Shown: positions 2,447 through 44,411, numbered from the stretch's first letter. The stretch is 64,000 bases of DNA from a virus (IMGVR_UViG_3300045988_067813:1036-65035); one strand, 5' to 3'. Notes: generated by a model from the letters alone, not told the origin. Numbers and translations are program-made.

Positions 2447-2507
2447 AACGCTGTAGGGGGCTTGTGAGAGCCTTCTAGAGCTATGATAGATAGAAAGGTA
2501 TTATAAA

Positions 2508-2663: not shown

Positions 2664-2674
2664 GAGAGGTTAAA

Positions 2675-22938: not shown

Positions 22939-23182
22939 TAAAGCATCAGATAAGTATATAGAACTTGAGAAGCTTTATAAAGAGATTGGTAAGGAGATAA
23001 AAGAAACTCTTGACCACAGAAAGCTTAAGAAGCTCAGACGTAAACGTAAGCTCATTAGAGCTGAACAGAATATGCTTTACCCTTATATGGTCAACACAGG
23101 TTATGTAGCTTACACAGAGCATGTATTAGGTTTAAAGGGTAATCAAGCCCTATATGGCAGATATATAAGAGGTAAGAAATGA
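22910..23182 (+). CDS. hypothetical basic protein
   Basis: 90-aa ORF, lysine/arginine rich (KLKKLRRKRKLIRAE). Confidence 0.45.
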   Translation: MKTTQNLTADKASDKYIELEKLYKEIGKEIKETLDHRKLKKLRRKRKLIRAEQNMLYPYMVNTGYVAYTEHVLGLKGNQALYGRYIRGKK

Positions 23183-23466
23183 TAGACATTGAAATTCTAA
23201 GAAGAAAGGCTAAGAGAGGTATCTCATTCCCTAAGCAGACTCCACAGTGGGTTGAATTGTTTGGTGTGAGATGCCTAGCCATTGGATTTTATAGAGGTGA
23301 TGAGAGACGTATTCTATTTCTAGCTAATAAACCTACAAGTGGATTCCATAATGGACATAAGATATTTAAGTTTATTCTATCGCTAGAAGCTAGATGCTAT
23401 GAGCTACCATTCACAGGACAAGTAGACTTAGGTATAGAGAAGTTCTCTAGGGGGTTTTATATATAG
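23179..23466 (+). CDS. array B small paralog 1 (ends SRGFYI)
   Basis: ATGA overlap with the upstream ORF. Shares the LFLANKP / FH core with the following ORFs. Confidence 0.55.
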   Translation: MIDIEILRRKAKRGISFPKQTPQWVELFGVRCLAIGFYRGDERRILFLANKPTSGFHNGHKIFKFILSLEARCYELPFTGQVDLGIEKFSRGFYI

Positions 23467-23475
23467 GAGTATATA

Positions 23476-23787
23476 ATGGAAACATTAGATGAACTAATAA
23501 GAAAAATAGAAGATAATTTAGAAGAAGATTGGGTAAAGTTAAAAGAAATTCCAAAGAGGTGTATATTAAAGAAAGCCTATGAATTAGTAAATGTGCCTGG
23601 TTATTTTGTTACAATATATTATCCAGATAGTGGGGGTGAAGAGTTTTTGTTTATATCGGATGTAAAGAATAAACAAGAGTTTCATGATGCTCCTTCTTTA
23701 TTTAAAACAAAATGCTTTAAGCATAGGTGTAGATGGGTATGGGGAAATGACGTAGAAATTGAAGAGTGTAAGGGTTTTTACATTTAG
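23476..23787 (+). CDS. array B small paralog 2 (ends CKGFYI)
   Basis: IPKRCILKKAYELVNVPGYFVTIYYPDSGGEEFLFISDVKNKQEFH aligns with paralog 3. Confidence 0.6.
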   Translation: METLDELIRKIEDNLEEDWVKLKEIPKRCILKKAYELVNVPGYFVTIYYPDSGGEEFLFISDVKNKQEFHDAPSLFKTKCFKHRCRWVWGNDVEIEECKGFYI

Positions 23788-23801
23788 GAGAATATGATAC
23801 A

Positions 23802-24098
23802 ATGGATGAATTGTTTAAAACTATAAAAAGTAACTTAGCTTATTATTATAAGGTAAAACATAAACCTAAAAGGTGTTGTCTTAATGATTATCTTGGTTTA
23901 ATAAAAGAACCTGGATATGTTGTTAAACTAATTCATGATGATGGCTGTGTAGATTTATTATTTATAGCTGATGAGAGACAAAAGAAACAAATTTATGGCT
24001 ATGGTTTTATCATTGAACGGAGTGAAGCATTAGCTAGACGTTGTTTGTTATTAGAAGATAAGGCTGTTAAAATCATAGAGAAAGGACTATGGATATGA
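23802..24098 (+). CDS. array B small paralog 3 (ends EKGLWI)
   Basis: KPKRCCLNDYLGLIKEPGYVVKLIHDDGCVDLLFIADERQKKQIY. Confidence 0.6.
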   Translation: MDELFKTIKSNLAYYYKVKHKPKRCCLNDYLGLIKEPGYVVKLIHDDGCVDLLFIADERQKKQIYGYGFIIERSEALARRCLLLEDKAVKIIEKGLWI

Positions 24099-24379
24099 CG
24101 AATATAGAAAAAGTAATAAAAGCTATTAAAGAGAAAGGGTTTACTATTATACAATATCCTTGTGATGCTTCTATACAAAAGGAAGATGAGGAACAAGTAT
24201 TCTTTGGTAAAACTCCTTTTGGAGAAAATGTATATGAATTGTTTATAAATAATGAGCCTGATGGACGTAATTTCCATAATGGTTGCTCAGTGTTAGGTAG
24301 TCACAATAGAATACCAGATATAATATGGTTTAAAGAAGTACATGATAAAATAACTATACTTGGACAGTTTTATATTTGA
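24089..24379 (+). CDS. array B small paralog 4 (ends LGQFYI)
   Basis: YELFINNEPDGRNFHNG core. Same size class and the same C-terminal tail. Confidence 0.55.
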   Translation: MDMTNIEKVIKAIKEKGFTIIQYPCDASIQKEDEEQVFFGKTPFGENVYELFINNEPDGRNFHNGCSVLGSHNRIPDIIWFKEVHDKITILGQFYI

Positions 24380-24389
24380 GGGTATAAAG

Positions 24390-24683
24390 ATGGAAAAACA
24401 TCAAGAGGAATATTTAGAATTATTAAAAGATAAGTATGTAATAAATAATATCTACCAAAGAGTTACTTATAAAAGAGTTAAAGGTATAGTTGATATTGGG
24501 ATTGCAGTAGAAGTAAAAAATTTAGATACTGGGACAGTATTTGCAGTATTCATAGCAGACAAGCCAAGAAAGTATTTACATAAGTTTGCATCACGATTAG
24601 AGAGTGGACATCTACCACCTTGTGTGTGGCTTGCTAAATTATCTGATAAAGAATTTGAGATACATAAAGGATTCTTCATATAA
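24390..24683 (+). CDS. array B small paralog 5 (ends HKGFFI)
   Basis: Start moved to ATG 24390 (a GAGGG RBS). Core is VFAVFIADKPRKYLH. Confidence 0.55.
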   Translation: MEKHQEEYLELLKDKYVINNIYQRVTYKRVKGIVDIGIAVEVKNLDTGTVFAVFIADKPRKYLHKFASRLESGHLPPCVWLAKLSDKEFEIHKGFFI

Positions 24684-24685
24684 AA

Positions 24686-24712
24686 CAAAAGAGCCTAATT
24701 GGCTCTCTTTTA
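24686..24712. terminator. bidirectional terminator at the convergence of early (+) and late (-) blocks
   Basis: agagcc-taatt-ggctct (24690-24706), with an A run on the left and a T run on the right. Confidence 0.65.
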
Positions 24713-25567
24713 TTTATTCTTTTTATCATCACAGTTACAGTCATCTTTAGGAATCTCTGTGAACTTCAAGCAGTCAGGTAGGTCTTTACCTTCAATGATA
24801 GGCACATACTCAACCTTGAATTGGTGAAGTCTGAATATACCACTAGCTGAGTTTTCTGGAACAACTCTTACCTTAATGTATTGACCAGCAGGTACAATGA
24901 TTGTGTCAGACATTTCCATAGCACCATCAGATATACCAGTCATTTGCCAATGCACAGAGCGTTGTTTAACCATGTCTGTAGTATAGCTTTCTCCACTGTG
25001 ATAGACTACAATCTGCATTGTGTTATCCTCTTGTGGGTTTAATGTAGTACCATCAGCACACCAACGTAGGAACACACGGTACTGTCTATCTGTGAGCTGT
25101 CTACGCTTATCATCATTCTCAAAGTCCACACCAGTAGTAGAATCCATGTAGAGGTCAATGTCATACTCTTTAGTAATAGGAGCATAGAATGTAGCAGAAG
25201 ATACAGCAGAGTTACGAGAGTAGTTCGTGTGTACCTTACCCATATCTCCAATAGATGCTACATACTCACCCATACACTGTACCATATCCCACAAAGCACA
25301 GATATTCTCAATGTAGTGGTTAAGCTGACAAGCTAGTTTCTTAATGAATGATGAGAAGAACTTAGGGTTATAGCACTTCTGTGATTCTGCCATACAAGCA
25401 AAACGTCCTACACCTTTGTTATTCTCTTCCACAAGCCTATCACAGTCAGCAATAGGAATATCTTCACAGTCACAGCTATCATACCAGCATCTATCTTTAG
25501 GATTCTCATTGTAACTCTTGAAAGATGCTTCATTCAGTCTTGTGTTTTTGTTATCTTCGTAAGCCAT
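24710..25567 (-). CDS. fibre-cluster protein with Cys-patterned N-terminal module
   Basis: N-terminal SCDCEDIPIADC...RFAC...LAC-x9-C-x7-C, and C-terminal DDCNCDD. Its start overlaps the upstream stop (TAATG). Confidence 0.6.
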   Translation of the reverse strand: MAYEDNKNTRLNEASFKSYNENPKDRCWYDSCDCEDIPIADCDRLVEENNKGVGRFACMAESQKCYNPKFFSSFIKKLACQLNHYIENICALWDMVQCMGEYVASIGDMGKVHTNYSRNSAVSSATFYAPITKEYDIDLYMDSTTGVDFENDDKRRQLTDRQYRVFLRWCADGTTLNPQEDNTMQIVVYHSGESYTTDMVKQRSVHWQMTGISDGAMEMSDTIIVPAGQYIKVRVVPENSASGIFRLHQFKVEYVPIIEGKDLPDCLKFTEIPKDDCNCDDKKNK

Positions 25568-26925
25568 TATCTACCAATCTTTCCTTGTTGTTTCCATGTA
25601 CCATCTTTCCTTATAGCGTTACCAGAAGCAGAGTAAGGTGGAAGGTATACCCCTGTGCTGGTTGTACCATAAGGTTTACCAGCGTCCTCAGCATTGATAC
25701 TTGTATCTTGCTTACCTCTTTTTCTGATAATCATGTCAATCTTCTTGGTTGTGAATGATAACCATTGACCACTATTTCTAATAGCCCAAGGTCTAATCTT
25801 AGCTACTTTGTCATAGAGGATTGTAATATCTCTAGTCTCAGTAGGCTCAATAGGTGCTGTTGGTGTATAGTAAGTGAATGTCTCACCACGAGAAGCATTA
25901 CCAAAGAAAGCTAACTCAAATGATGAGTTTGGACCTTCTCCAGTTGGGTCATAGATAGTTGTTCTTCCTAGCCTATTACCTCGTGCATTAAAATCAATCC
26001 TACTACCTACCCCAGCAAGTACAAATGAACCTCTAGGAATGTCATAATGTTTGTTATACTTAGCTCCTTTATCATCACCTATATAAGTACCATCATAACT
26101 AAGGTTAGAACCAGAAGGTCTAGAATACACAGTAGTTGAATCACTATAGTTAGCACTTACACGTTGATAATAGTCAGTATCTACTACGGCTGTGGAAGTG
26201 ATTAGTTTAATAGGATTTCCTGATGAATCTTCAAAGTATATAGAGTAATTTATACTGTAGACATCATAAAACCATATACCCAATCCATCAGTATCCTCAT
26301 AAGGAGCTATCCAAATACCAGGAGTAACCCCATTAAAGGAGGTTTCATAATAATTATGTACTAATATTCTTAAGTAAACAGCTTTTCCAGAAATGGTATA
26401 TGACACAGGATAAGGTAGTCTTATATTAAGACCTGGATACATACCCCTTGCCCCTTTTTTACCTGAATAATTGTATTCAGGGTTTCTACCATATCGGATA
26501 GGGCTTGCTAATACTTCTACACCAGGCTGTTCTGTGAATACTTTAAATGCGTTAAAATAGTCATAAGAACCTGGTCTACTTGTGTTAAATTGAGCTACAC
26601 CAGATATATTACCATAATCAAAGAAACCAGATTGATTTCTATAACTATTGACTTTCTCTAAATTTCTCCTATTAGCAGATATAAGGCTCATGTACTCAGC
26701 CATATCTCTATTGTATTTCATAACAGCATAACTGCTATTATAACTACTCTCAGAAGGAGTTCTTTTTTGAGATTCATACAATTCCCTTGCATTATAACCT
26801 TGGAATGTTTTTTGTGTCTCAGCTATTAAAGTATCAAATGAATCATAGCCTACCCTCACAGGAGAAGCTAAGTCTTGTCCTGTTTGGGCATCTTTATAAT
26901 AGATATTATAATTAAACTTAGCCAT
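25567..26925 (-). CDS. putative receptor-binding protein (C-terminal domain P, paralog of 30243-31520)
   Basis: Shared blocks with 30243-31520: FEDSSGNPIKL, VVDTDYYQ, IPRGSFVLAGVGSRID, FFGN, GET. Confidence 0.55.
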   Translation of the reverse strand: MAKFNYNIYYKDAQTGQDLASPVRVGYDSFDTLIAETQKTFQGYNARELYESQKRTPSESSYNSSYAVMKYNRDMAEYMSLISANRRNLEKVNSYRNQSGFFDYGNISGVAQFNTSRPGSYDYFNAFKVFTEQPGVEVLASPIRYGRNPEYNYSGKKGARGMYPGLNIRLPYPVSYTISGKAVYLRILVHNYYETSFNGVTPGIWIAPYEDTDGLGIWFYDVYSINYSIYFEDSSGNPIKLITSTAVVDTDYYQRVSANYSDSTTVYSRPSGSNLSYDGTYIGDDKGAKYNKHYDIPRGSFVLAGVGSRIDFNARGNRLGRTTIYDPTGEGPNSSFELAFFGNASRGETFTYYTPTAPIEPTETRDITILYDKVAKIRPWAIRNSGQWLSFTTKKIDMIIRKRGKQDTSINAEDAGKPYGTTSTGVYLPPYSASGNAIRKDGTWKQQGKIGR

Positions 26926-28049
26926 TAAATTCCTCCTGTAAGGTCATTCTCTGTGCTACCATTGTTTGTTCTAATAAAGGCATTACCGTCAGGTTGTCCT
27001 CCAAAGAGGTTGATATTACCTGTAGCAAGGTGTCTATTAGGTTTAAGATTACCCTTGAAGATAGTATCTCCAGTTTGTTCCCAAGCACCAGAGCCTTTAA
27101 GGTCTTCAAGTAACTTAGTGAAAGCATCTTTAAGCTCATTGTACTGATTCACCGTAACATAGTTACTTAGGTCAGGCTGAGGAATCTCCACAGAATTACC
27201 ATTAGAAATGGTTAGCCTATTGTTTGAGATAGAGAGTGTCTGATTATCATTGTCTCTCTTAGCTTCAAGCACACCAAGTCTACGTTTAATATCTGCATCA
27301 TTGTAAGGAGTAGGGGTAGGAATATCTACCTCTCCACCTCCATTAGATAACACAATCTTGTTGCCCTGTTTACTTATAGTTTGCTTGTCATTTCTAAGTG
27401 CCCATGAACCCATGTTTTGAACAGTAATATTATTACCATTCACAGAGGTTACTTTGTAGAACTCTGTGTTAGAAGCATCATTCCCTGACCAGTAGTCTTG
27501 AATAGTATCACCAACTTTAACTCCATCAGGGTTTATTAAATATGATTTTTGTATTGTAGTAGTAGCTCCTACTGCTCCAGATGATATATCTCCTTTAGCC
27601 CATCTAGTAACAGTATCTTTGTCTGTTCTATCCTCTAAAGCCTTGACTCTATTTCTTAATGCTGTGTCATCATAAGCAATACCAATAGTATCCTTATCAT
27701 CAAACTCCACAGTCTTAGGCTGACCAGTCACAAAGTTATAAGTAAGTTTTACCTTATTACCAGTACGACTAGCAGTTACTCCTGTAACAAAGTTATCTGT
27801 CTTACCCTCTAATGCTGTGAGCCTACGTTTAACATCAGTATCATTGTAGATAGTATCTCTGTCCTCTGGGAGTGTAATAGAGTTTCCCCCACTAATAGAA
27901 ACAGTTCTATTGTTGATTGTGAGGGTTTGGTTATCTCTATCTTGTTTATTCTCTAAAGCAGTTATTCTAGCTTTTAATGGAGCATCATCATAGGCTGTAA
28001 CAGTAGGTGTTGGTTGTTGCTCATTCTTAATATAAGTAGTCTTTGACAT
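26925..28049 (-). CDS. tail-fibre protein (repeat modules plus conserved TGGI C-terminus)
   Basis: Modules seen: ALE-x-K-x-D(K/R)D, QTL-x-I-x...SISGGNSITLP, NKVKLTYNFVTGQPKTVEFDDKDTIGIAYDD. Ends GNINLFGGQPDGNAFIRTNNGSTENDLTGGI. Confidence 0.65.
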   Translation of the reverse strand: MSKTTYIKNEQQPTPTVTAYDDAPLKARITALENKQDRDNQTLTINNRTVSISGGNSITLPEDRDTIYNDTDVKRRLTALEGKTDNFVTGVTASRTGNKVKLTYNFVTGQPKTVEFDDKDTIGIAYDDTALRNRVKALEDRTDKDTVTRWAKGDISSGAVGATTTIQKSYLINPDGVKVGDTIQDYWSGNDASNTEFYKVTSVNGNNITVQNMGSWALRNDKQTISKQGNKIVLSNGGGEVDIPTPTPYNDADIKRRLGVLEAKRDNDNQTLSISNNRLTISNGNSVEIPQPDLSNYVTVNQYNELKDAFTKLLEDLKGSGAWEQTGDTIFKGNLKPNRHLATGNINLFGGQPDGNAFIRTNNGSTENDLTGGI

Positions 28050-29680
28050 TAGTTTAACCTCGGTATGTTGTAGTATTTATTGTCACTTTGGTTTTTCAGA
28101 ACAACAGTTCCTTGCACAGATTGGATATAGAATCTCACATTTTTAAGTGTAAGATTTAACTTACCTATTACAACATCATTCTTTTTAACCTCAATTTCAA
28201 TAGGCTCTGATGAATCAAGTTCTTCTTTAGTAATATAATGTGTGTAATACTCTGTATGAGAACTTAGCACAACACTCCATATAATTTTAGGTTTCAGAGA
28301 AACCATTGCTTTATTATTTGAGTCTTTCCAACTAGCATATATATTACTATCAAACCTAATACCGTTACTTAAAGTAGTATACCCATCAAAATCTACTATA
28401 GTGTTATTTGTTGATAGTCCTGTGATTCTGAAATTACTACCAGATATGTTAGATGCACCTACACCAGTATAGTTAAAATTACCTTCATAATCAAATAAGA
28501 TACCTGCTTCCATAAGAAGGTTTCTCTGTTCAGTTCCATCATTATTCACAGCATAAGAAATACTATCTTTAATAGCACTATCATATCTTTTATCTGATGT
28601 TATTGGTATATGCCTTGTACTACTTGGGTAAGGGAATGATAAATCCTTATTCAAAGCCATTTCAATGTGGAATGTATTATCACTATCAAGGAATAACCCA
28701 TTACCTTTAGCCTTATACTTAGTGTCTTTATCCTCTTTAGCTTCTAAAGCATTAAGTCTATTGACCACAGAGGAGTCATCATAAGGTTGTACATTATTAG
28801 GCTGTGGTAATTCTACTTCACCCCCACCATTAGAGAGAATGAGCTTATTACCCTCTTTTGTGATGGTCTGTTTGTCATTAGGTAGAGTTACACTATTACC
28901 ATTAGAGATACTTAACACACGAGAGCTATTATCTAGTGTGAGATTCTGATTATCTCTATCTTGCTTGGCTTCTAATGTCTCAATTCTATCAAATAATGCT
29001 TTATTAGGATAAGGTCTGGATTCTAAGTTATCTAACCTTTCCTTTACAGCCCTATCATCATATACTGTGTCCTTATCTGGTTTGTCCTCTAAGGCTTTAA
29101 CCCTAGCTTTTAAGGCTGTATCATCATAGGCTAAACTAATTGTATCCTTATCCTCAAATTCAACCTCTTTAGGAGCGCCATTCACAAAGGTATAGGTAAG
29201 CTTAACCTTATTTCCTTCTCTTGAAACAGTCACACCACTCACAAAGTTATCAGCTTTATCTTCCACAGCTTGAATACGTCTACGGAGTTCAGCATCATTA
29301 TACACGGTGTCTCTATCTTCTGGTAGGTTGATTGCATTACCATTACTGATAGTGATTGTTCTACCATTGATAGCAAGGCTCTGTGTATCATTAGGAAGGG
29401 TTACTGTATTCCCTCTTGTAATTGTAAGTTCTCTTGTGCTTCTATCTAATTCAAGATTCTGTGGCTTCTGTACAGCTCCTCCAGCTCCTCCCATGAGAAT
29501 CCAACTAGACCTATCAGGAGCTAGAGCATACATATTCCCATCAGGAGTTCTGAACAAATGGTCAAAGTCACCCATGAAAGTGTCAGGAAGACTATCCACA
29601 GGAGCAATCCAAGTGTCTTTAGGGTAAGTGCAATCTCTACAAAATGTATTGGGATTTCCTCCACAAGAATAACAACCCAT
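28049..29680 (-). CDS. tail-fibre protein (CxxC N-terminus, repeat modules, unique C-terminal domain)
   Basis: N-terminus MGCYSCGGNPNTFCRDC. Repeats of the [20 protein letters not shown] and NKVKLTYTFVNGAPKEVEFEDKDTISLAYDD types. Confidence 0.65.
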   Translation of the reverse strand: MGCYSCGGNPNTFCRDCTYPKDTWIAPVDSLPDTFMGDFDHLFRTPDGNMYALAPDRSSWILMGGAGGAVQKPQNLELDRSTRELTITRGNTVTLPNDTQSLAINGRTITISNGNAINLPEDRDTVYNDAELRRRIQAVEDKADNFVSGVTVSREGNKVKLTYTFVNGAPKEVEFEDKDTISLAYDDTALKARVKALEDKPDKDTVYDDRAVKERLDNLESRPYPNKALFDRIETLEAKQDRDNQNLTLDNSSRVLSISNGNSVTLPNDKQTITKEGNKLILSNGGGEVELPQPNNVQPYDDSSVVNRLNALEAKEDKDTKYKAKGNGLFLDSDNTFHIEMALNKDLSFPYPSSTRHIPITSDKRYDSAIKDSISYAVNNDGTEQRNLLMEAGILFDYEGNFNYTGVGASNISGSNFRITGLSTNNTIVDFDGYTTLSNGIRFDSNIYASWKDSNNKAMVSLKPKIIWSVVLSSHTEYYTHYITKEELDSSEPIEIEVKKNDVVIGKLNLTLKNVRFYIQSVQGTVVLKNQSDNKYYNIPRLN

Positions 29681-29682
29681 TA

Positions 29683-30243
29683 TTAGATACCTCCTGTTAA
29701 GTCGTTTTCTGTACTTCCGTTATTAGTACGGATAAAGTATTGTCCGTCTGGTTGACCACCGAACAAGTTGATATTACCAGTAGCAATATTTCTGTTAGGT
29801 ACAAAGTCACCATCTAGTCCACCTTGCCAAGCTCCACTAGCTTGTAAGTTGTTTATAATCTTATTTAAAGCTCTCTTAAGCTTCTCATTCTCTGCTCTTA
29901 AATCAGCATCATTGTAGGGTTGTGAAGGACTAGGAATGTTCCCTGTAAAACTAATAGTACCATCTTTAGAAATACTAATTAAGTTACCTGCTTTATAGGT
30001 AGGAGCAGTAGAACCTCCACCAGCATTATTAGCTAACCAACATAGCTGATTAGATACATTCTTATTGAAACACCACTGTGAGTAGGCAAACTTGGCTGTT
30101 TGGTCTACAATCTCACACATTTGGCTATCCCTAAGAACTAGAGCGTGCATTTTTATTTTATCATCATTCTGTGCTAAGAGTGATTGGCAAGCTGTCTTAC
30201 CAACTACTATATCCTCACACTGACAGTTTACACAATCTGACAT
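29683..30243 (-). CDS. short fibre protein (Cys-patterned N-module plus TGGI C-terminus)
   Basis: N-terminal DCVNCQCEDIVVGKTAC...QMC...QWC-x9-C. C-terminus GNINLFGGQPDGQYFIRTNNGSTENDLTGGI. Confidence 0.6.
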   Translation of the reverse strand: MSDCVNCQCEDIVVGKTACQSLLAQNDDKIKMHALVLRDSQMCEIVDQTAKFAYSQWCFNKNVSNQLCWLANNAGGGSTAPTYKAGNLISISKDGTISFTGNIPSPSQPYNDADLRAENEKLKRALNKIINNLQASGAWQGGLDGDFVPNRNIATGNINLFGGQPDGQYFIRTNNGSTENDLTGGI

Positions 30244-31520
30244 TAGTTATCTCCTAAACAATCAAAATCGCATGACATTAAGTCACATTCTTCTATAGGG
30301 GGTATAGGTTTTGGAGGTTCATGAAGGTCTACAGTTTCTCCTTCAAAGTCATTACCAAAGAAGTCCATCCACCAGTTATTATCTCCTCCACCATCAGTAT
30401 CAATGTAGTTTACTCCAGGGTGGTTAGCTATAATCTCCCAATCAATCTTTGTGCCTACTCCTGCATACACAAGAGAGCCTAGAGGAATACTGCTTTCATT
30501 TTTAGCATCAAAGCTATCCTCAGCACTGATGTACCCACCATTCATTACAAGTCTTGAACCTGGAGGGTTTTTAACAAGGGTTTTACTATTATTAAAACTA
30601 GCCCAAAATCCTTGTCTATAGTCAATATCATTCACAGCATTTACTACCATAAGATTGATAGGCTGGTCAGATTCATCTAAGAACTCAAAAGTACCAGTTA
30701 CCTTATAGTAGTTACCCACATGGATTCTAATAGCACCATCACCATTTCTAACAATTATCCAGTTACTACTCTCTGTTTGTGCGTGTGAACTTAGTTCATA
30801 ACTATTGATAGTTACCCTTAAGTTGATGGTTTTACCACTACTAGTCCTTCCTACTCTTGTTAGAGTTGTGGATATTCCTGGATATAAGTCTGTAGAGTAG
30901 TAGTCCACTTGAGTATTATTATCAAAAGTGATACCCCCAGAAGCATAGTCAACACCATCTTTAGAGGTTGCTAGTGATAGTTTGGAGAAGTAAGAAAAAC
31001 TACCAGTCCTAGAAGAATCAAAGTCGCCTGATACAAAGATGCCATCAACCTCTTCTACAGTAGGGTCTTTTTTCATTTCCTCTAACCGTTTCTTGGCTTT
31101 AGCCAATCTTACAAGTTGCTCTTCGTAGATGGCTTTAGCTTCGTTGTAGATACCTTTTTTATCATTAGGAGTATTAGGCTCTTTCTGCTTGTACTTCTTA
31201 ATCATGTCCTTGTTACGCTTTACTGTGATTGAGTTAGCTTCAATGATATTAGCTTTCATACAATGTAAGGTTACACACAAAGACTTAATCTTCTTCTGTA
31301 AGCACACCATACGTTGTAGTACATCACAGATAGTCTTGATAATCTTTCTTAATCTACACCAAAGCCTAAATACACCCTTCTGTGTATTAGGAACAACATC
31401 ACACTGCTCAGAGTCTTTGATTATATCACCAGCACGCTTAATATCCTCTTGTGATTCATTCTTGTCACAGTATTTACCAGTGATTACTTTATCATCACAA
31501 CGACAATCACAAACGTCCAT
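30243..31520 (-). CDS. putative receptor-binding protein (Cys-patterned N-module plus domain P)
   Basis: Start moved to ATG 31520 (RBS aggaggtcttATG). N-terminal VCDCRCDD...C...C...WC-x9-C-x7-C-x8-C-x4-C. C-terminal blocks VNDIDYRQ, IPLGSLVYAGVGTKID, FFGN, GET. Confidence 0.6.
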   Translation of the reverse strand: MDVCDCRCDDKVITGKYCDKNESQEDIKRAGDIIKDSEQCDVVPNTQKGVFRLWCRLRKIIKTICDVLQRMVCLQKKIKSLCVTLHCMKANIIEANSITVKRNKDMIKKYKQKEPNTPNDKKGIYNEAKAIYEEQLVRLAKAKKRLEEMKKDPTVEEVDGIFVSGDFDSSRTGSFSYFSKLSLATSKDGVDYASGGITFDNNTQVDYYSTDLYPGISTTLTRVGRTSSGKTINLRVTINSYELSSHAQTESSNWIIVRNGDGAIRIHVGNYYKVTGTFEFLDESDQPINLMVVNAVNDIDYRQGFWASFNNSKTLVKNPPGSRLVMNGGYISAEDSFDAKNESSIPLGSLVYAGVGTKIDWEIIANHPGVNYIDTDGGGDNNWWMDFFGNDFEGETVDLHEPPKPIPPIEECDLMSCDFDCLGDN

Positions 31521-31528
31521 AAGACCTC

Positions 31529-31891
31529 CTAGCACTTATCACAGCTAACCTCACAAGGTGTAACTGGTTGTTCTTTTAATACACTCAGAACCTCTGCAAT
31601 ACTGTCATTTTGACATTTAACAGTACCACACAAGCTATCTACTTTCTTCTCTAAGCACTCTAGCTTTCTAATGATATAACACAAGAAACCTACAATGTTT
31701 TTGATTACACACCACACACCATAGAAGGCTTGTCTAATAGCTTCTTGAAGATTACACCACTCAGAGGTTGAGATTTTCCTCATTGCTGGTCTAATCTTTA
31801 GGTCATTTAGCTCTAGTAACTTAGCACAGTTCTCTGGTCTTGGCTCAACTTTCTCACACTCACAGTGCTTATTTAAACAGTTATCTGCCAT
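31529..31891 (-). CDS. stand-alone Cys-patterned module protein (120 aa)
   Basis: NCLNKHCECEKVEPRPENC...EWC...VWC-x9-C-x7-C-x8-C-x4-C. It consists of the module only. Confidence 0.55.
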   Translation of the reverse strand: MADNCLNKHCECEKVEPRPENCAKLLELNDLKIRPAMRKISTSEWCNLQEAIRQAFYGVWCVIKNIVGFLCYIIRKLECLEKKVDSLCGTVKCQNDSIAEVLSVLKEQPVTPCEVSCDKC

Positions 31892-32094
31892 TATTCATTC
31901 TCTTTCTTGTATGTGATATTAGACAGCCCTAAGACTGTTCCCAAGAATGTATTAAAGGCTGTGAGGACTACCACAGGGGTAGTCATCTCATAACCTAATT
32001 GCACTCCTACCACACCAATAAAAGTAATGAAGGCAGGTAGTGCTGTAGTTGCTATAAATTTAGCAATATCATAAAAATCATTACTCATTTTCAT
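31891..32094 (-). CDS. two-TM small membrane protein, holin-like
   Basis: 67 aa with two hydrophobic helices (IATTALPAFITFIGVVGV and VVVLTAFNTFLGTVLGL) and a charged C-terminus (YKKENE). General likeness to r1t-type holins, recalled from memory. Confidence 0.4.
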   Translation of the reverse strand: MKMSNDFYDIAKFIATTALPAFITFIGVVGVQLGYEMTTPVVVLTAFNTFLGTVLGLSNITYKKENE

Positions 32095-33713: not shown

Positions 33714-36700
33714 CTACCCTTTCTTTTGTACTTTGTAAGAGTTACTTGAAGCAGTAACAGCAGTGAATGTAGCTTCTACATAACCTTGCTCAACTCCACC
33801 TTTAGAGATTGAGATTCTAGCTGGCTCTGTACCTTGCAACTCAGCTAGGCTAAGTGCTTTACGATATTTAACCACTTCATTCTCATTCTCAGGTTCATAC
33901 ACAAGGTATGCTTTCACAGTAGAACCTGTATAGAAGAACTCTACATACACAAACTCATTGATAGAGTTTCTGTGTGAACCTTGAATCTCATCTCCAGTTG
34001 TACCAGAGGTGAATCCAACTTTACCTGCCACAGTAGTTTCTTCACCTCCGAATGGAGATTTAACCCTAGCTGATACATTACCACTAAGTACAAGCTCTTT
34101 AAACTGTACATCAGAAGCATCATAAACTAGGTTAATCACACCTTCACCTTGATTTAGGGCTATAGCTTTGACAGTCTTATCTAGTTCATATTCAAGCTCT
34201 GGTTTATTTTCAAGAGCTTCAACTCTACCTCTAAGAGCACTATCATCATAGGCTACTGATACAGTATCGTTGTCTGTGAATGAGACTTCTTTGTTATCAC
34301 CATTTACCATAGTGTAAGTCAACTTCACAGTATTACCTTCTCTAGATACACCTACGTTAGAGACAAAGTTATCAGTCTTACCTTCAAGAGCAGTAATCTT
34401 GTCACGCAACTCTTTATCATTATAGACTGTATCTTTATCCTCTTTAGTCTCAAGAGCTGTCAATCTAGCAGTCACAGCAGAGTCATCATAGATTGTATCC
34501 TTGTCAGGTTTAGCTTTAAGAGCTTCAACGTCTGTAGTCAAGGTGTTAATCTTGTTCTCATGCTCATCTACCATATTGTCAGTAGTAGCAATGCTATCTT
34601 TGTTAGCTTGGATAAGTTTCTTAACTTCTGTATCATCATACACAGTATCCTTATCAACCTTAGTCTCAAGGGCTGTAAGACGTTCCTTAAGTGGAGCATC
34701 ATCATATACTGTGTCTTTATCTTCTTTAGTTTCTAGGGCATTCAAGCGTTCTTTAATAGGTGCATCATTATAGATAGTGTCATTATCTGCTCTATTCTCA
34801 AGGTCTTGCACACGAGCTTTAAGGGCTGTATCGTCATAAGCGATTGCCTTAGTATCATTGTCATTGAACTCAAGATTAGTAGATGAACCATCAATGTTAG
34901 TGTAAGTAAGGGTAACTACATTACCTTGTCTTGTCACACTAGCACCAGTCAAGAATGATTTAGTCTTCTCTTTAAGAGCATTGATTTCTTCATCTTGTGA
35001 AGCATTCTTAGCTTTAACCACAGTATCATCATACTTAGGAAGCTCTACAGAGTTACCGTTAGAGATAGACAATGTGTGGTCAGTAAGGCTCAATGTTTGT
35101 TTATCATTGTCCTCTTTAGCTTCAATAGCTTGGAGACGTGTATCCAAACCTTGAACCTTAGTATCAGCATCAGCTTTGTTGTCTGTGATAGACTTAGCCA
35201 ATTCAGCATCTTTAGCTTTAAGAGCTTGGATTTCAGCATCTTGTGCATTATCCTTAATAGCCTGAGCACTTTCATCAGTAGTCACACGAGTAGTCAAAGC
35301 TTCAACTTTACCTTTAAGCTCAGTATCGTCATATACTGTATCTTTATCAGGCTTAGTTTCCAAAGCAGTAAGACGTTCTTTCACAGCAGTGTCATCATAA
35401 GCAAGAGTTACTGTATCAGAATCTTCAAACTCAACCTCTTTATTAGAACCATCAACATAACTATAAGTCAATTTGACTTTGTTACCTTCTTTGTTCACAG
35501 AGACACCAGATACGAAGTTATCTGTTTTAGCTTTGAGTGTGTTGATTTCATTAGTCAACTCTTGGTCTTTGTTAGCCAATTCTGTGTCTTTAGCCTTAAG
35601 CTCTTCCACATCAGCCTTCAAAGCACTGTCATCATATTTAGGAAGGGTAACTGCATTACCTCCACTGATTGACAATGTATGGTCATCAAGAGTAAGAGTT
35701 TGGTTATCATTATCAACCTTGTTTTCCAAGGCTGTAATCTTACCTTCAAGCTCTGTATTCTTAGCGTCTTGAGCTTCTTTGTTAGCAGTTACACGACCAG
35801 CAAGAGCAGTATCATCATATACAGTATCTTTGTCTGGTTTAACTTCCAAGGCTTGGATTCTGTTTTCTAACTCTGTATTCTTACCATCTTGTGCTTGTTT
35901 ATTCCCATCAACCTTAGTATCAAGGGCTGTAATAGAAGCAGTATTAGCTTGAATACCTTGCTTAACTTCTGTGTCATTGTAGATAGTATCTTTATCTTCC
36001 TTATCTTCTAAGGCTTTGATACGAGTCTTCAATGGTTCATCATCATAGGCAAGGGTAACAGTATCACTGTCCTCAAACTCTACTTCACTAGAAGAACCGT
36101 CCACACGAGAGTAAGTCAGTTTGACTTTACCAGCTTCCTTAGACACAGTAACATTATTGATAAAGTTGTCTGTTCTATTCTCAAGGGCTGTAATCTTCTC
36201 ATCTTGTGCTGTATTCTTAGCTTCAATCTCAGTAAGTTTGTTCTCAACTACTGGTTTAGCTTCTTCAAGAACATTCACACGAGCTGTAAGAGCAGTGTTT
36301 TTAGCATCAGCATCAGCTTTAGCTGTACCAAGTACCAAGGTAAGGGCATCAGCTTTAGAGTCTACATAGTTTTTAACTTGCTCTGTGTAGTCCATAGCTT
36401 GATTCAGACCATCACCTAAGTGATTGATAGCATCTTTCACAGCAGTGTCATCATACTGTGGTAGGTCAACTTCATTACCATTAGAGATAGACAATTTATG
36501 TCCATCAATAGCCAATGTCTGTTTGTCTGAGTCTTCCTTAGATTCCAAAGCCTTAACTCTTGTGTCAAGTCCTTGTGCTTTATGGTCAATCAAGTCAACT
36601 GTTTTACCAAGAGTTTCACCCAATGTTTCAAGAGCAGTTTCTACTTCTGCATCTTTCTTCTTAAGGGCTTCAATCTCAGCATCTTGTGAACCATCTTTCT

Positions 36701-37586
36701 CAGCTTGTGCTTTGGCTTTATCCTCAGCATCTTTAGCCAATTTATCAGTTCTATTTTCAATCTCAGTCACAGCATTGGTAATGTCTCCTACCTCTGTGTG
36801 GATTGCTTTAACTTCTTCCTCAAGACCACCATCTAAGAGTTTGAGTTGGTCATTGATTTCATTGATTGAGTTATCTAGTTCACTAGTCAACTCTTTCATG
36901 TCTTGAGAGTCTTTTTGTAAGTCTGCAATAGCCTTACCATGCTCTTCATCTAAGTGTTGCACAGACTCATTCAAGTCTTTCACAGACTCTCCTAAGTCAT
37001 CTAAAGCACCATCTTGACGTTCATTGTCTTTCTTAAGCTCAAGGACTTTAGCATCAATAAGGTCTACTGTTTTCTCAATAGTCTTACCTACAGCTTCAAG
37101 AGCATCATCTAATTGGTCATCATGAGCTTTAAGAGCTTCTAACTTAGTATCTTGCTCAGAGTCCTTAGCTTCAATAGCTGAGAGTTTAGCTTCATGCACA
37201 GCATCTTTAGCTTCCAAGGCAGATACTTTAGTATCCAACTCTTTATCTTTAGCTGTCAATGAATCCAATACTGCTTGGAATGAAGGAGAAGTAGTCACAG
37301 TGAACGTTACGTCACCATTCTCATTATGTACTTCTTTCTTCACAGTGATTAGACCTTCACCTACTACATCAATTACTTGCGGAGACAAGTCAATGGCATC
37401 ATAACCACTTCTGTCAGGACGTAGTACATAAGCACGTTTGTCTTGACCTGCATTGTCTTTAGGCACAAGGTAAATGAAATTAAGTTCAGCGGTCTCTTTT
37501 GGAGGAAGCTCACTTACAATCTTAACGATTGGGTCTTTCTTAAGAAGCTCTAGCAAGCAACCTAAACCAACTTTAACTTTTGTCAT
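33714..37586 (-). CDS. giant tail fibre (1290 aa), coiled-coil with reiterated modules
   Basis: Long heptad-like acidic/lysine coiled-coil. At least 10 ALE-x-K-x-DKDT(V/I)Y(D/N)D motifs, 3 QTL...LSISNGN-x-V-x-LP-x-YDD modules and 4-5 NFV-x-GV...GNKVKLTY...EVEFED-x-DT...AYDD modules. RBS is aaaggagaaactaaATG. Confidence 0.8.
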
Positions 37587-38551
37587 TTAGTTTCTCCTTT
37601 TTGGATTTTAATAATTCCATCTTTGTCCGTTGTGAATGTTCCATTAGTGTTCATCACACCCTCATTATCCACAAAATACCAACCATCTCTACCCTTCACA
37701 AAGGTGTTTGTTTGCATATCGCCATTAGCTGGGTCAAGGTAGTACCACTTATCTTTGTCTTTCAACCAACCAGTCTTCATAGCACCTTCTTCTTTGAAAT
37801 AATACCACTTACTAGCAATATTCTTCCAACCAGTTACCATTTCACCAGAGCTGTTAAACCAATACCAATAACCATCAGTGTGTTTTAACCAACGATTAGA
37901 GTACATATATCCACTACCATCAAAGTAGTACCATGTACCATCAATTTTCTTGAATTGATTCTTAGGATAAGTGCCATCAGCATATTCATACCAATAACCT
38001 GTGGTATTCTTTTTCCAACCCTCAGTACCACCAATACCATTCTCAATGTCTTTCTTGAATTGAGCTTTTGAAATTCCCCAACTCTCTAGGTAAGGGTAAG
38101 GGTCAACGTGGTCTGAATGGTTATCAGGTTGGTTATAAGTACAGTAGTAATGAGTTTTAATACCAGCTAAGTCATCAGTATCTAATGTTACTGGGATTCC
38201 ACCTTCTACTGCAAGTTCACGAAGAAGTGTTACATATAGTCTATAGTCAATATCAAATTCTTCTTGTGTTTTGTGACTCTCAATCAATTCCACAGAAGCG
38301 TAGGATTCAGCATTCCAACCTCCTCCAACGTCATAGCTTCCACGGTTAGTTTGAGCTGTTTGTAGCACTCTACCATTCCCTACAACGTGTGTAAAGAATC
38401 CTGAATCAATAGGTCTTCTTAGGTGGTAATCTGCTTCATTATCTACAGTGGAGTTTTTATTCCCTGTAGAGTGTGCATGAACTTGTCTATAAGGTGTAAC
38501 TCCTACTTGTGGAGTATCCCACCTAATCTTGTGTTTTTCAATCGTTACCAC
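37583..38551 (-). CDS. LytA-like N-acetylmuramoyl-L-alanine amidase with choline-binding repeats (endolysin)
   Basis: [42 protein letters not shown] and [17 protein letters not shown] are near-identical to blocks of pneumococcal LytA as I recall it. The C-terminus has six GW-x-K...WYYF-type repeats. GTG start with an AGGAG RBS. Confidence 0.9.
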
Positions 38552-38879
38552 TAGATTTCTCCTTATTAAATAGTTCTTCTAGTTTACTATCCAATCCATG
38601 AATATAGTGATTACCTTGTAAGTTATCAAAGTATTCCTTCACAAGAGGTCTAGTCATTTCCCATTTCTCTTTTGCTGTGAACTCTGTTGAGTTATAAATC
38701 TGCAAGTATTCTGAGCGTAGGCTAGAGCGTTTAGCTCCCTTAGTAATTTCAATGAGCTGTTCTCTCTTACGATTTAAAAAGAATACTCCAAAACTACAAG
38801 CAGTCGTAATTAATAGAGTTAAACCTGTAACTACTGTTTGGTCTTCTAGGAGCTTTAATACAATACTATTATTACCCAT
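38538..38879 (-). CDS. single-TM membrane protein immediately upstream of the endolysin (holin candidate)
   Basis: TM segment [20 protein letters not shown] followed by a charged tail. Its 3' end overlaps the lysin start by 14 nt. ATG at 38879 follows GGTGG; an alternative GTG lies at 38888. Confidence 0.4.
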
Positions 38880-39201
38880 ATAGACCACCTGTTTCTATTT
38901 CTAGGATTGGGTCTTCTCCACCTTCTGCAAGTTTCTCAAGGTCTTTAAGGATTTCCTCTTTACCTTTACCCACACAAGGCATCTCAATAACCTTTTCTTC
39001 TGGAGTAGGTGTTGGTGTAGGAGTTACTCCACTACCGTTACCTTTTCCATTGTCAAGGCTACAGTCAAAGTCAATTTGTATTCCATCACACTGACCATCT
39101 AATTGCTCACAAGTTGCTTTAGGAATCTGTGAATAACGTTTAGACCAGTCAATGTATGAAATACCACAGAGTTTATCTGCTTCATCTAATACATAGACCA
39201 T
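38872..39201 (-). CDS. hypothetical virion/lysis-region protein
   Basis: 109-aa ORF with C-x4-C-x-style cysteines (CEQLDGQCDGIQIDFDC) and a TPTPTPTP linker. Confidence 0.45.
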   Translation of the reverse strand: MVYVLDEADKLCGISYIDWSKRYSQIPKATCEQLDGQCDGIQIDFDCSLDNGKGNGSGVTPTPTPTPEEKVIEMPCVGKGKEEILKDLEKLAEGGEDPILEIETGGLYG

Positions 39202-42030: not shown

Positions 42031-43308
42031 CTACTGGTTCACAGTAATATCTCTATCACTGTACAAGAACTTGGATAGTTTTAGCTTTTGTAAGTGTGTA
42101 TTGCCTACATCATACTCATCAGTAATATGAGTAACATAGAACCAATCACTTTGCTTAAGAATCTTCTCATAATACTTGGTACAAGCAGTCAATTCCCACA
42201 CACCAGCATTAAGAGTAAACATTACCCTATCACCTACACCTAGAGTTCTAGGCTCTAAAGGCTCTATTGTAATGTCATAGGTAACTTTACGTCTAGAGTT
42301 AATTAAACGTCTTATAGCTGTCCTATAGAGCTGTTCTGTGGCTCTAAGCCTATCTGAATCTGTAATCTCTCTATTGTCATCAGCAATGGATTGTGTGTCA
42401 TTATCAGTCACAGTACCCCAATAAAGCTCTCCAGCTTCTAAAGCAATACCTTCTTCGTCCATTACAGCAAACTCATCACCAATAATTTCAGGAGCAAACA
42501 CAGGAAGCTGTGGGTAATCATAGTAGCGCTGAGAGTTTACTTTATTACCTGTCTTAATTACAGGGAAACCTTTTAACATGAACTTAGGGTTATGGAAAAT
42601 ATCTCTAAGAGTAAGGGAACTAGCTCCACTATCAGATTTATCTGACATGGCTACAGCTATATTCACAGTATCTTCATAGTTTTCCTCTACCTCATTTAAA
42701 GCAATCAGCTTTGTGTGTTCATTGATTAGTACATCTCTCTTATGACCAAAGATACCAAACTGAATTAGATAAGGGTCTTGTCTACTAACTCTCCAATAGA
42801 GAGCTGTAGTCTTCTCACACACCTTAGTTAAGAACTCTAGGAAAGTCTCATTAGAAAACTCATACTCAATCAAGTTCTTCTCAGCATAGTCATCTAGGTA
42901 CTCAATCTTGAAATCATTTAGTAGGTCATCTTTGTGTTGTTCACCCTTCCAATAACCCATAGCTTGTTCCACAGCAGATACCACAGACCTAGCTTTTACT
43001 GTTACGTTTGTAGGAAGAGTTCTTTTACCTAATCTACCAATTATATGAGAGGTATCTACATTCACAGTCATATTAGTAAAGTCATTTACCTTATTACCTA
43101 CATAACCTCTATATTCCCAATCATCAGTCTTAATAATGATATGAGTGTTACCATTCATCATCTTACCATATCTGATAGGAAGTGTGAGCTTAATAGAAGG
43201 AACTTCCATAAGGGAGAACTCTACTGAGATTCCCCCTAAGAAGTCATCTTTGGCTATAATTGCTGAACCTAGTCCAGAGCTTACTGAATTTTCAATATAA
43301 CCAATCAT
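42031..43308 (-). CDS. Tal-like baseplate/tail-tip protein
   Basis: 425-aa ORF, second gene after the tape measure (positional call). ATGA-type overlap with the upstream gene. Confidence 0.4.
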   Translation of the reverse strand: MIGYIENSVSSGLGSAIIAKDDFLGGISVEFSLMEVPSIKLTLPIRYGKMMNGNTHIIIKTDDWEYRGYVGNKVNDFTNMTVNVDTSHIIGRLGKRTLPTNVTVKARSVVSAVEQAMGYWKGEQHKDDLLNDFKIEYLDDYAEKNLIEYEFSNETFLEFLTKVCEKTTALYWRVSRQDPYLIQFGIFGHKRDVLINEHTKLIALNEVEENYEDTVNIAVAMSDKSDSGASSLTLRDIFHNPKFMLKGFPVIKTGNKVNSQRYYDYPQLPVFAPEIIGDEFAVMDEEGIALEAGELYWGTVTDNDTQSIADDNREITDSDRLRATEQLYRTAIRRLINSRRKVTYDITIEPLEPRTLGVGDRVMFTLNAGVWELTACTKYYEKILKQSDWFYVTHITDEYDVGNTHLQKLKLSKFLYSDRDITVNQ

Positions 43309-44411
43309 ACTGTTACACCCTCATAATCAATAAAGATACAAGCATTTTCACTTTCTACACCACTAACTGACACTGTATTGACTCCCTTCTTGATATAAGG
43401 TGTTTCAGCACAGAGAGTAAGTACAGAGAGGGAAACTTCTTTATAGCTGAACTCTATACATTCCCAAGACTTAGCATATCTGATTTCTCCTTTATAATTA
43501 GCTGTAAGAACTCCATTGTACTCACCACTAATCTTGAAGTCAACATCATTTATTCTAACCACAGGGTCTTTAAACTGACCATCTAAGGCAAAGCTCCACT
43601 TATGACTGTCTAGCACAGTATCAGAGATAAAGCTACCATTCAAGACCTCATGCACACAGTTATCACAGATTGCATGTTTATAGAAGTCCTTAAGGGATTG
43701 ATTGCATTTACCTTTTGAGCAGTTATAGACTATTCTCCATTTAGAGTTACACTCTTCAAAGAAGTCATTCATGAACTCTACATTGGCTTGTGCTGTACAC
43801 AGGTCAATCATATCGTCCATATCCCTACAGTCTTGCTCACAGCACTCACAGATATTATTACAATTAGGTAGACCATTACAGCAATGTCTTGACTTGGCTA
43901 CACAACTAGCTTTCATATCTAGGAAGTCACAGTTATCAAAAGGTTCAAGGAAGGTCTTGGCTTCATCAGCCTTATACCACACACCATCAGGGTTATCAAA
44001 CTCAACTTTAAACACAAGGTAGTCATCATCAGTGATTATCCACTCTTTTTTAGGCTGAATACTTGTAACATAGGCATTACACCACACGAGTTGTAGCCCT
44101 GTGTTCACAGCCCATAGCTTTCCAGGAGTGAAGAGCTGTTCAATGATAAAGTCATAGTGTGCTTGTATATGTTCCTCTGACCAATTATGAGTTCTTAATG
44201 CAATTTTAAGTGAGATAGAGTTACTATCTACTAATGATTTAGACCCAATATTTCCAACATAAGACCCATTGGTAAAAGTGCGTGAGGTTTTACTCTCACG
44301 CAAGCTAATACTCTCTGTCTGTTCATCAATAGATTTTCTACCAAGGAACACTAGGTCATTGAATTGGATATATCGTTTGGGCTTTGAGAAATTTTCATCA
44401 CACGCAAACAT
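43305..44411 (-). CDS. Dit-like distal tail protein with Cys-rich insertion
   Basis: Immediately follows the tape measure (TAATG overlap). The central segment CCNGLPNCNNICECCEQDCRDMDDMIDLC...CNSKWRIVYNCSKGKCN...CDNC is very cysteine-dense. Confidence 0.45.
   Translation of the reverse strand: MFACDENFSKPKRYIQFNDLVFLGRKSIDEQTESISLRESKTSRTFTNGSYVGNIGSKSLVDSNSISLKIALRTHNWSEEHIQAHYDFIIEQLFTPGKLWAVNTGLQLVWCNAYVTSIQPKKEWIITDDDYLVFKVEFDNPDGVWYKADEAKTFLEPFDNCDFLDMKASCVAKSRHCCNGLPNCNNICECCEQDCRDMDDMIDLCTAQANVEFMNDFFEECNSKWRIVYNCSKGKCNQSLKDFYKHAICDNCVHEVLNGSFISDTVLDSHKWSFALDGQFKDPVVRINDVDFKISGEYNGVLTANYKGEIRYAKSWECIEFSYKEVSLSVLTLCAETPYIKKGVNTVSVSGVESENACIFIDYEGVTV

Follow-up and report, generated by a model that had tools for sequence, protein, structure and literature searches.

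What function may be carried by a cysteine-patterned segment that recurs in four otherwise divergent proteins encoded at the end of the late operon of a virus? The question is raised by a stretch of viral DNA of 64,000 nucleotides (IMGVR_UViG_3300045988_067813:1036-65035; the window below means this whole stretch), which is almost a whole siphophage genome of about 64 kb. In a preliminary description, the four proteins had been regarded as fibre or receptor-binding proteins (RBPs) that share one N-terminal cysteine module, one of them being the module alone. All four open reading frames (ORFs) were present on the minus strand where they had been placed, and their products of 120, 425, 186 and 285 amino acids (aa) are referred to below by length (Table 1). 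The shared segment is a homologous, cysteine-defined domain of 75-100 aa (the module). As to its function, we propose, with a probability of roughly 0.45, that in Cys-rich phages of streptococci and lactococci the module is a Cys-stapled, virion-proximal domain that anchors or bundles fibres or RBPs, which are probably trimeric.

Homology among the four proteins was supported by BLASTP for the pairs of 120 and 425 aa (E = 2e-13), 120 and 186 aa (4e-8), and 425 and 186 aa (2e-9). The 285-aa protein matched the other three weakly (E = 0.005-0.056), but despite these weak pairwise values every core Cys column was in register, and homologues of this protein absent from the query profile (P0077) scored 1e-16 or better in a library of 1.84 billion proteins. 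When the four paralogues were aligned with three orthologues of the 120-aa protein, invariance was confined to seven cysteine columns, C5, C10, C12, C22, C46, C61 and C71 (numbering of the 120-aa protein throughout), even though the paralogues are only 18-30% identical. The E-values and this Cys-only invariance argue that the pattern did not arise by chance or from composition, and such an origin was rejected. The first motif, given as C-x-C in the preliminary description, is present but is preceded by a further conserved Cys, so that it reads C-x4-C-x-C. Both the 120-aa protein (C61, C71, C79, C88, C93) and the 425-aa protein, of which the module holds the full 10-Cys pattern, show the spacing WC-x9-C-x7-C-x8-C-x4-C exactly; the 186-aa protein follows it as far as C71 and the 285-aa protein as far as C79. 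The core cysteines at 5, 10, 12, 22, 46, 61 and 71 of the 120-aa protein, which are followed by extension cysteines at 79, 88 and 93, correspond to positions 27, 32, 34, 42, 65, 80 and 90 of the 285-aa protein, the equivalent of C79 being its Cys 98. When every six-frame ORF of the window was scanned with a profile, the module was detected in these four proteins only. Of the 281 cysteines counted in 85 window ORFs (Cys content 1.4%), 46 belong to these four, and the neighbouring proteins of 1290, 452 and 374 aa hold none or one.

For identification of the wider family, an exhaustive HMMER profile search was performed against the same 1.84 billion proteins. A total of 65 representatives were obtained at E < 1e-3, including 34 at E < 1e-10. 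Every contig examined among the carriers was phage-like, and the matches from named sources were annotated no further than "hypothetical protein". A further word-indexed homologue search with a broad alignment gave 20 matches and added little. Over 69 sequences, the conserved core reads C-x4-C-x-C ... C22-x2-L-x3-N ... C46 ... W-C61-x3-N-x-I-x3-C71, followed by C79, C88 and C93 as optional positions; C22, C46 and C71 are kept in more than 90% of the family, and L25, N29, W60, N65 and I67 are also conserved. The joining of one module to unrelated head domains, as previously proposed, was borne out by both the alignment and the family profile search.

The module had also not been recognised among described phage fibre adaptors, and the searches agreed. 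Pfam and NCBIfam gave only sub-threshold noise, the PDB profile search a best E of 0.35, and Foldseek against PDB with the predicted model of the module a best E of 1.5, with generic helical hairpins only. In the BFVD fold search, the near-significant matches were only two uncharacterised homologues of the metagenomic 'Siphoviridae sp. ctzSN25' (E = 3e-3 and 7e-3). One phage family, phrog_35125 (function unknown), matched 17 of 50 module sequences (best E = 1.4e-23) and spans both module and head in P0074, and the search of PHROGs with the four window proteins gave no module match. No match was found by tblastn of the 120-aa protein and of P0074 against GenBank phages. In species-representative bacterial genomes, no relative of the 285-aa protein was detected, and there is thus no sign of prophage copies. 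As judged from these searches, the module is an undescribed and unannotated domain, though one already sequenced in phages; because a divergent copy occurs in cultured Lactococcus phages of the P087 group (see below), the family is unannotated rather than absent from sequenced phages.

The idea of an N-terminal adaptor applies to most members, but not to several: the module is internal in P0101, P0104, P0117, P0076, P0098 and P0114, and lies near the C-terminus in a 447-aa protein of locus L007. Several of these internal or C-terminal modules come after a lectin head and a polyproline linker. The number of module genes per locus is four in the window, L007, L010 and L011, and two in L016. The variable position would suit a different and unlikely explanation, in which the module is a foldon-like nucleus for folding or trimerisation and a clamp for stability, without any docking, the fibres being attached through other parts or other proteins. 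The presence of several different module proteins in one genome, as in the window, L007, L010 and L011, argues against such a role.

The fold of the 120-aa protein was predicted by AlphaFold2 using an alignment of 50 sequences (mean predicted local distance difference test score, pLDDT, 84.9). The model consists of two helices, 19-42 and 45-107, with a two-residue turn between them, preceded by an unstructured yet well-placed segment, 11-18, and by ten poorly placed residues at the N-terminus of the monomer (pLDDT 53). Helix 2 carries a family-wide hydrophobic 3-4 repeat (positions 45, 48, 52, 55/56, 59, 62/63, 66/67, 70, 73/74, 77, 80, 84 and 87); its hydrophobic face is broad, the cysteines flank the core positions, and N29 and N65 are conserved. 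We read this model as a helical hairpin, of which the second helix would run on as a coiled coil. The coiled-coil-like prediction of helix 2 is also in line with a pure trimerisation unit.

Pairing of the cysteines was examined by covariation among 51 representatives of less than 80% identity. Both C22 and C71 were present in 46, neither in three, C22 alone in two, and C71 alone in none. All three losses of C22 fell among the five losses of C71 (hypergeometric probability about 5e-4, phylogeny being ignored), and no other Cys pair was lost together. The double loss was also observed in P0026/P0032 and in ORF81 of Lactococcus phage AM6. The co-loss fits a C22-C71 staple across the open end of the predicted hairpin, and the register so implied would also pair N29 with N65. 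Among 144 proteins counted, the members ending in a domain here called TGGI have exactly seven core cysteines and none at the C-terminus, and in long members with other heads the extension cysteines and the cysteines among the final ~15 residues number three each or two each. The C-terminal tails, present on three of the four module proteins of the window, follow the motifs C-x3-C-x2-C, C-x4-C-x3-C, C-x6-C-x2-C and C-x10-C-x-C. In the dereplicated family, no histidine was found at any of the seven core Cys positions. The co-loss, the matching of counts and the lack of histidine favour disulfides. The total Cys numbers are odd, seven in the core and 11 or 13 in long forms, and with an odd core number at least one Cys per chain must stay unsatisfied within its chain, which speaks for a bond to another chain or molecule, or for a metal site.

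The odd numbers, which rule out that all cysteines form intrachain disulfides, bear on the rather unlikely alternative that metal, zinc or an iron-sulfur cluster, takes the place of disulfides and that its loading in the reducing cytoplasm drives assembly. For example, the three N-terminal cysteines of each chain could form a threefold Zn3Cys9-type cluster at the trimer tip, and the tail, which reads C-x3-C-x2-C in the 120-aa protein, could hold a second cluster together with the helix cysteines of the long form. The Gram-positive cytoplasm is reducing and disulfides are disfavoured there, as they would be for virions assembled in it; the poorly placed first ten residues fit a site completed by metal or by partner chains; and the tail-tip protein gpL of phage lambda, which binds an iron-sulfur cluster, offers a precedent. 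Opposed to the metal are the lack of histidine just described, the paired loss of C22 and C71 and the one-to-one numbers of extension and tail cysteines, both typical of disulfide partners, the widely varying tail spacing, which is unusual for a single cluster geometry, and the failure of the module to match any metal-binding family.

The heads joined to the module were then compared with known domains, and the earlier view that they resemble receptor-binding domains was supported for relatives and for two of the window proteins. In relatives, Pfam identified GbpC (PF08363) or BspA_v (PF18220) heads well above cut-offs, with E-values of 3.5e-37 for P0104 (GbpC), 1.3e-15 for P0117 (BspA_v), 3.6e-24 for P0096 and 3.9e-9 for P0069. 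GbpC and BspA_v are lectin-like V-domains of streptococcal antigen I/II adhesins, and their fusion to the module suggests that the phages may bind glucans or plaque matrix besides cells. For the 285-aa protein, AlphaFold2 predicted a beta-sandwich head with moderate confidence (pLDDT 75-86), and Foldseek matched it at E-values of 6e-6 to 1e-3 to the central-spike knob of phi812 (6e-6), Chlamydia Pgp3, ExsFA, 4-1BBL and C1q-like proteins. The predicted head thus looks TNF/C1q-like, and known examples of this fold form trimers. In the 186-aa protein, the TGGI domain (aa 116-186) shares 70-72% identity with the C-terminal part of the annotated appendage proteins Cp-1 orf15 and Cp-7 ORF16 (E = 1e-22 to 4e-22), and aa 112-186 are matched by phrog_17155 and phrog_7547. 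A domain called P is common to the 425- and 452-aa proteins; its assignment as GbpC was not confirmed: the match was below Pfam significance, and neither a profile-profile comparison nor a PDB profile search supported it.

Two of these heads are also in agreement with trimerisation without docking: the 285-aa module is joined to a TNF-like head, and in Cp-7 ORF16 the TGGI domain is borne on a coiled coil with a different, Cys-free N-terminus, indicating that attachment and module are separable. The head-less form of the module is difficult to accommodate in that explanation. The 120-aa protein aligned end to end with P0069 (78% identity) and with a 291-aa protein of L011 (55% identity), in both of which a BspA_v head separates the module from a P-C-E-x-x-C-D-K-C tail. 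The difference is a clean deletion of the ~170-aa head, with both Cys-bearing ends retained. The 120-aa protein, previously taken for the bare module, therefore keeps a C-terminal C-x3-C-x2-C tail as well, and by its alignment it is a head-deleted form of a protein with module and BspA_v head. Its cluster was found on 178 contigs, and all cysteines are kept in full-length relatives down to 68% identity. Conservation of the head-less form argues that module and tail have a role of their own, for instance as filler or adaptor, and such a widespread unit of module and Cys tail is hard to explain as a pure trimerisation device.

The gene organisation of the window was examined for the setting of the module genes (Table 1). 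The plus strand up to ~24.7 kb carries early and replication genes (family A DNA polymerase, primase-helicase and PD-(D/E)XK nuclease). The late operon on the minus strand runs in the order of terminase, portal, head genes, an ORF at the tape-measure position, the homologue of the distal tail protein Dit, tail lysin proteins and endolysin. Past the endolysin come another 13 kb of the operon, in which the genes are closely spaced and often overlap: a 1290-aa repeat protein, three small ORFs, a Dp-1-type holin-like gene and seven fibre or module genes. A bidirectional hairpin is the only terminator-like one on the post-endolysin stretch. The endolysin homologues of near-identical contigs bear choline-binding repeats, indicating a mitis-group or oral Streptococcus host. 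The related contigs are metagenome assemblies. Megablast of a 10-kb region against GenBank phages gave no match, that is, no close relative; the terminase (26% identity) and Dit (27-28%) are nearest to those of the Lactococcus P087 group, genus Teubervirus. The start of the 425-aa gene is most likely ATG 31520, not GTG 31535 of the 430-aa open ORF, in agreement with the gene calls of related contigs, which give 425 aa.

Table 1. Positions of the module genes, followed by other features of the window
Feature	Position	Strand	Remarks
120-aa protein	31529-31891	-	Module aa 1-~100; C-terminal C-x3-C-x2-C tail (Cys 113, 117, 120)
425-aa protein	30243-31520	-	N-terminal module, charged helical stretch, domain P, C-terminal C-x4-C-x3-C tail
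186-aa protein	29683-30243	-	Core module (7 Cys, ends after C71), Gly-rich linker, C-terminal TGGI domain
285-aa protein	24710-25567	-	21-aa leader, module aa ~22-105, predicted TNF/C1q-like head aa ~110-260, C-x10-C-x-C tail
Five tandem ORFs	23179-24683	+	95-107 aa; end of plus-strand block
Bidirectional terminator-like hairpin	24687-24709	.	Directly after 285-aa gene; closes late operon
452-aa Cys-free protein	25567-26925	-	Domain P as in 425-aa protein; C-terminus 'PWAIRNSG...' resembles Cp-7 ORF17
374-aa Cys-free fibre protein	26925-28049	-	Ends in TGGI domain, as 186-aa protein
543-aa fibre-repeat protein	28049-29680	-	Without module; N-terminal CxxC-x7-CxxC (Cys 3, 6, 14, 17)
67-aa Dp-1-type holin-like membrane protein	31891-32094	-	PF16938, E = 2.3e-14; stop overlaps start of 120-aa gene
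1290-aa protein	33714-37586	-	Start overlaps endolysin stop
Endolysin	37583-38551	-	
Two small ORFs	38538-39201	-	Just upstream of endolysin
368-aa Dit homologue	43305-44411	-	Directly after tape-measure-position ORF; 20 Cys, 15 within aa 161-252
1596-aa ORF, tape-measure position	44411-49201	-	Homologous 1594-aa ORF of L011 carries PF20155 TMP_3
451-aa structural protein	49217-50572	-	10 Cys
190-aa protein	50808-51380	-	6 Cys
166-aa protein	51846-52346	-	7 Cys
261-aa protein	52653-53438	-	Among head genes; 19 Cys (7.3%), CGCFDC and CCKCCDPCSC runs; no Pfam match
Portal	58072-59415	-	N-terminal C3, C6, C11, C15
Terminase	59415-61055	-	

Location of the module genes after the endolysin, and directly after a second holin-like gene, could alternatively mean that the products are late-expressed adhesins or matrix binders that are released at lysis, are not virion parts and are oligomerised by the module in the oxidising surroundings outside the cell. 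The heads of relatives, being copies of the V-domains GbpC and BspA_v of host surface adhesins, would agree with such a role, and PblA and PblB of Streptococcus mitis phage SM1 have reportedly been proposed as adhesins released at lysis. This explanation is the least likely of all and is regarded as very improbable: the genes form a closely coupled part of the late operon, annotated appendages of Cp-7 share the TGGI domain and the ORF17-like C-terminus, and in both L013 and AM6 the module genes lie within the tail or baseplate cluster.

If the module anchors fibres to the virion, as we favour, the Dit homologue is a candidate socket. It was aligned with the 'distal tail protein' of AM6 over 93% of the query (27-28% identity, E ~1e-30), and 18 of its 20 cysteines are invariant against the L010 homologue (52% identity). 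The Dit of L011 has 20 cysteines, that of L013 has 24, and that of AM6 has nine in the same region; nearly all cysteines of the window Dit are retained in the homologues of L010, L011 and L013. We know of no described Dit with such a Cys-dense insertion. In L013, a different phage of a distant clade, the gene order is tape measure, 374-aa Dit (24 Cys), module protein P0129 and, as the following tail gene, that of a 625-aa protein. The baseplate cluster of AM6, a cultured Lactococcus phage, has the order of tape measure protein, Dit, Tal, structural protein, ORF79, RBP (ORF80), ORF81 and ORF82, ORF80 having been designated the RBP by HHpred (PMC5371800). AM6 ORF81, annotated merely as a hypothetical protein, carries a divergent module without C22 and C71 (hhalign E = 1.4e-5, probability 80%). 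At its C-terminus lies a domain homologous to the C-terminal domain of P0120 (E = 1e-12), which P0113 and P0114 share as well. The comparison of AM6 ORF80 with the module gave an hhalign probability of 25%, too weak for use.

Short Cys motifs were also recognized at the N-termini of neighbouring proteins. In AM6 (locus L014, 12547-15210), ORF80 to ORF83 begin with paired cysteines (MACKNC.., ..PCIADNCNC.., MAVNNCDTAC.. and MALNTCDNGC..). The CxxC-x7-CxxC of the 543-aa protein recurs at the same positions in a 486-aa protein of L011 (11847-13307) and a 215-aa protein of L015 (103-750), and a 499-aa protein of L007 has a similar N-terminal Cys set with different spacing. The paired cysteines of AM6 suggest that short N-terminal Cys tags are a general trait of peripheral baseplate proteins in this lineage. 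The tags on appendage neighbours devoid of the module, together with the Cys-dense Dit, point to a shared hub and further argue against folding or trimerisation as the sole function of the module. The CxxC-x7-CxxC spacing is zinc-ribbon-like and is kept in otherwise divergent appendage proteins of three phages.

Two published properties of the P087 group are of relevance to the Cys content. Phage P087 expresses a cysteine synthase (cysK) and yields more phage with added sulfide (bioRxiv 10.1101/2021.01.05.425418), and P087-group phages are unusually heat-resistant, the titre being kept at 83 degrees C (PMC5371800). Heat survival and the gain from cysK and sulfide are correlations only, but would make sense for a cysteine-hungry, cross-linked virion. 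Neither PMC5371800 nor bioRxiv 10.1101/2021.01.05.425418 ties its finding to Cys-rich structural proteins. Among the ten larger window ORFs scanned for cysK, none was found. Several virion-module proteins of the window are Cys-rich (the 451-, 166- and 190-aa proteins in Table 1), as is the 261-aa protein, to which a 224-aa protein with 18 cysteines in L013 is homologue-like.

The proposed arrangement may be described as follows. An N-terminal Cys loop (C5, C10, C12) would be followed by the hairpin (~19-42 and 45-71), closed by a C22-C71 disulfide, and in the long form by its coiled-coil continuation, in which C79, C88 and C93 would pair one-to-one with the C-terminal tail cysteines of the same or a neighbouring chain. 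Different heads, an antigen I/II-type lectin, a TNF-like domain or the TGGI adaptor domain, would be shuffled onto this unit, and one or more leftover cysteines would link the module to a partner, the likeliest being the Cys-dense insertion of Dit or other Cys-tagged appendage proteins, in a manner comparable to Pam3 (see below). The arrangement is supported by the module genes closing the late operon, by the overlapping start and stop codons, and by the terminator being located only after the last gene.

A number of points weigh against this proposal. The virion location of all four proteins is inferred only, and the position of their genes downstream of the endolysin is unusual for baseplate proteins. 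Several members carry the module internally or at the C-terminus, and it cannot therefore be regarded as a plain N-terminal plug. Because the cytoplasm in which virions are assembled is reducing, disulfides could form only after lysis. The Cys pairs are assigned from covariation, the matching of three extension to three tail cysteines is violated by P0071, and the C-terminal tail of the 120-aa model is of low confidence (pLDDT ~57). The co-occurrence of Cys-rich Dit and module may reflect shared ancestry only. The module is also present on the podovirus-like contig L015; because this short contig resembles a small podovirus, which would have no Dit, Dit cannot be the universal partner.

As an extension of the anchoring proposal, put forward only tentatively, Cys tags and module might serve as common addresses in a redox- or metal-dependent 'cysteine plug-and-socket', by which changeable heads and the head-less filler are coupled covalently to the Dit insertion. 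The adhesion device would then become locked only once the phage has been released into its oral or dairy surroundings, which are oxidising.

Among the neighbouring genes, the 1290-aa protein is built from several types of repeat motif, such as 'NFV.GV.V...GN.VKLTY', and the same repeats are present in the 543- and 374-aa proteins; from its sequence it looks like a modular fibre shaft. The Dp-1-type holin-like gene is located 5.5 kb downstream of the endolysin and adjoins the endolysin instead in L007, L010 and L011. In L007, a 578-aa endolysin (2411-4147) has its Amidase_2 and SH3_5 domains split by an insert of ~300 aa, intein-like as judged from sequence. The five tandem plus-strand ORFs all end in G-[FLQ]-[YWF]-I, their endings including 'GFYI', 'GLWI', 'GQFYI' and 'GFFI', and appear to be one paralogous family; in related contigs, similar arrays of 90-109-aa genes are located at the same place.

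The attachment of RBPs in siphophages of Gram-positive bacteria is known for only a few lactococcal models, in which it is non-covalent. If the anchoring proposal is true, a compact and portable Cys anchor would represent the second covalent fibre attachment after Pam3 and would provide a handle for engineering the host range of streptococcal phages. The module is common to abundant oral streptococcal phages and is degenerate in the cultured P087 group, the phages of which offer an experimental system for its study. It might also help to explain the heat resistance of P087-type phages (PMC5371800) and the benefit of cysteine synthase and sulfide (bioRxiv 10.1101/2021.01.05.425418).

Comparison with known systems places these features in perspective. 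The antigen I/II V-domains (PF08363 and PF18220) are cargo on the modules of relatives and not the module itself. The CHCH fold (twin CX9C) is similar in being a Cys-held helical hairpin with C-x9-C on one helix, but CHCH needs CX9C on both helices, whereas the module has C61-x9-C71 on helix 2 only and just C22 on helix 1; the module differs further in its extra N-terminal C-x4-C-x-C loop and long coiled-coil extension, and no sequence match to CHCH was found. The appendage proteins of Cp-1 and Cp-7 share with the 186- and 374-aa proteins the TGGI domain (~70% identical to that of Cp-1 orf15 and Cp-7 ORF16, annotated "Appendage"), the C-terminus of Cp-7 ORF17 is resembled by that of the 452-aa protein, and the gene order, TGGI first and ORF17-like next, is retained. 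The Cp-7 appendage proteins, in contrast, have zero cysteine, a different N-terminal domain and no module. In the P087 group, Dit and the terminase large subunit are distant homologues of those of the window, and the RBP (P087 gp78 or AM6 ORF80) is the neighbour of ORF81 with its degenerate module; the module gene of AM6 precedes the lysis cassette, whereas the module genes of the window follow it.

The fibres of cyanophage Pam3 have a helical domain at the N-terminus and a TNF-like domain; disulfides join them to Cys-rich loops of the baseplate wedge, and dithiothreitol (DTT) releases the fibres (PMC9942802). No Pam3 gp24-related match surfaced in the searches run, none of which was aimed at gp24 itself. 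Pam3 is a cyanobacterial myophage with wedge proteins, whereas the window phage is a siphophage of a Gram-positive host with Dit, and each Pam3 fibre chain has one Cys, compared with 7-13 in the module. The likeness to gp24, which is bound to the wedge proteins gp22 and gp23 (PMC9942802), lies in the succession of a helical domain and a TNF-like domain, as predicted for the 285-aa protein. In Pam3 the Cys of the fibre helical domain is bonded to a Cys-rich baseplate protein, and in the window phage a Cys-dense Dit is present, to which the module may be attached in a comparable manner.

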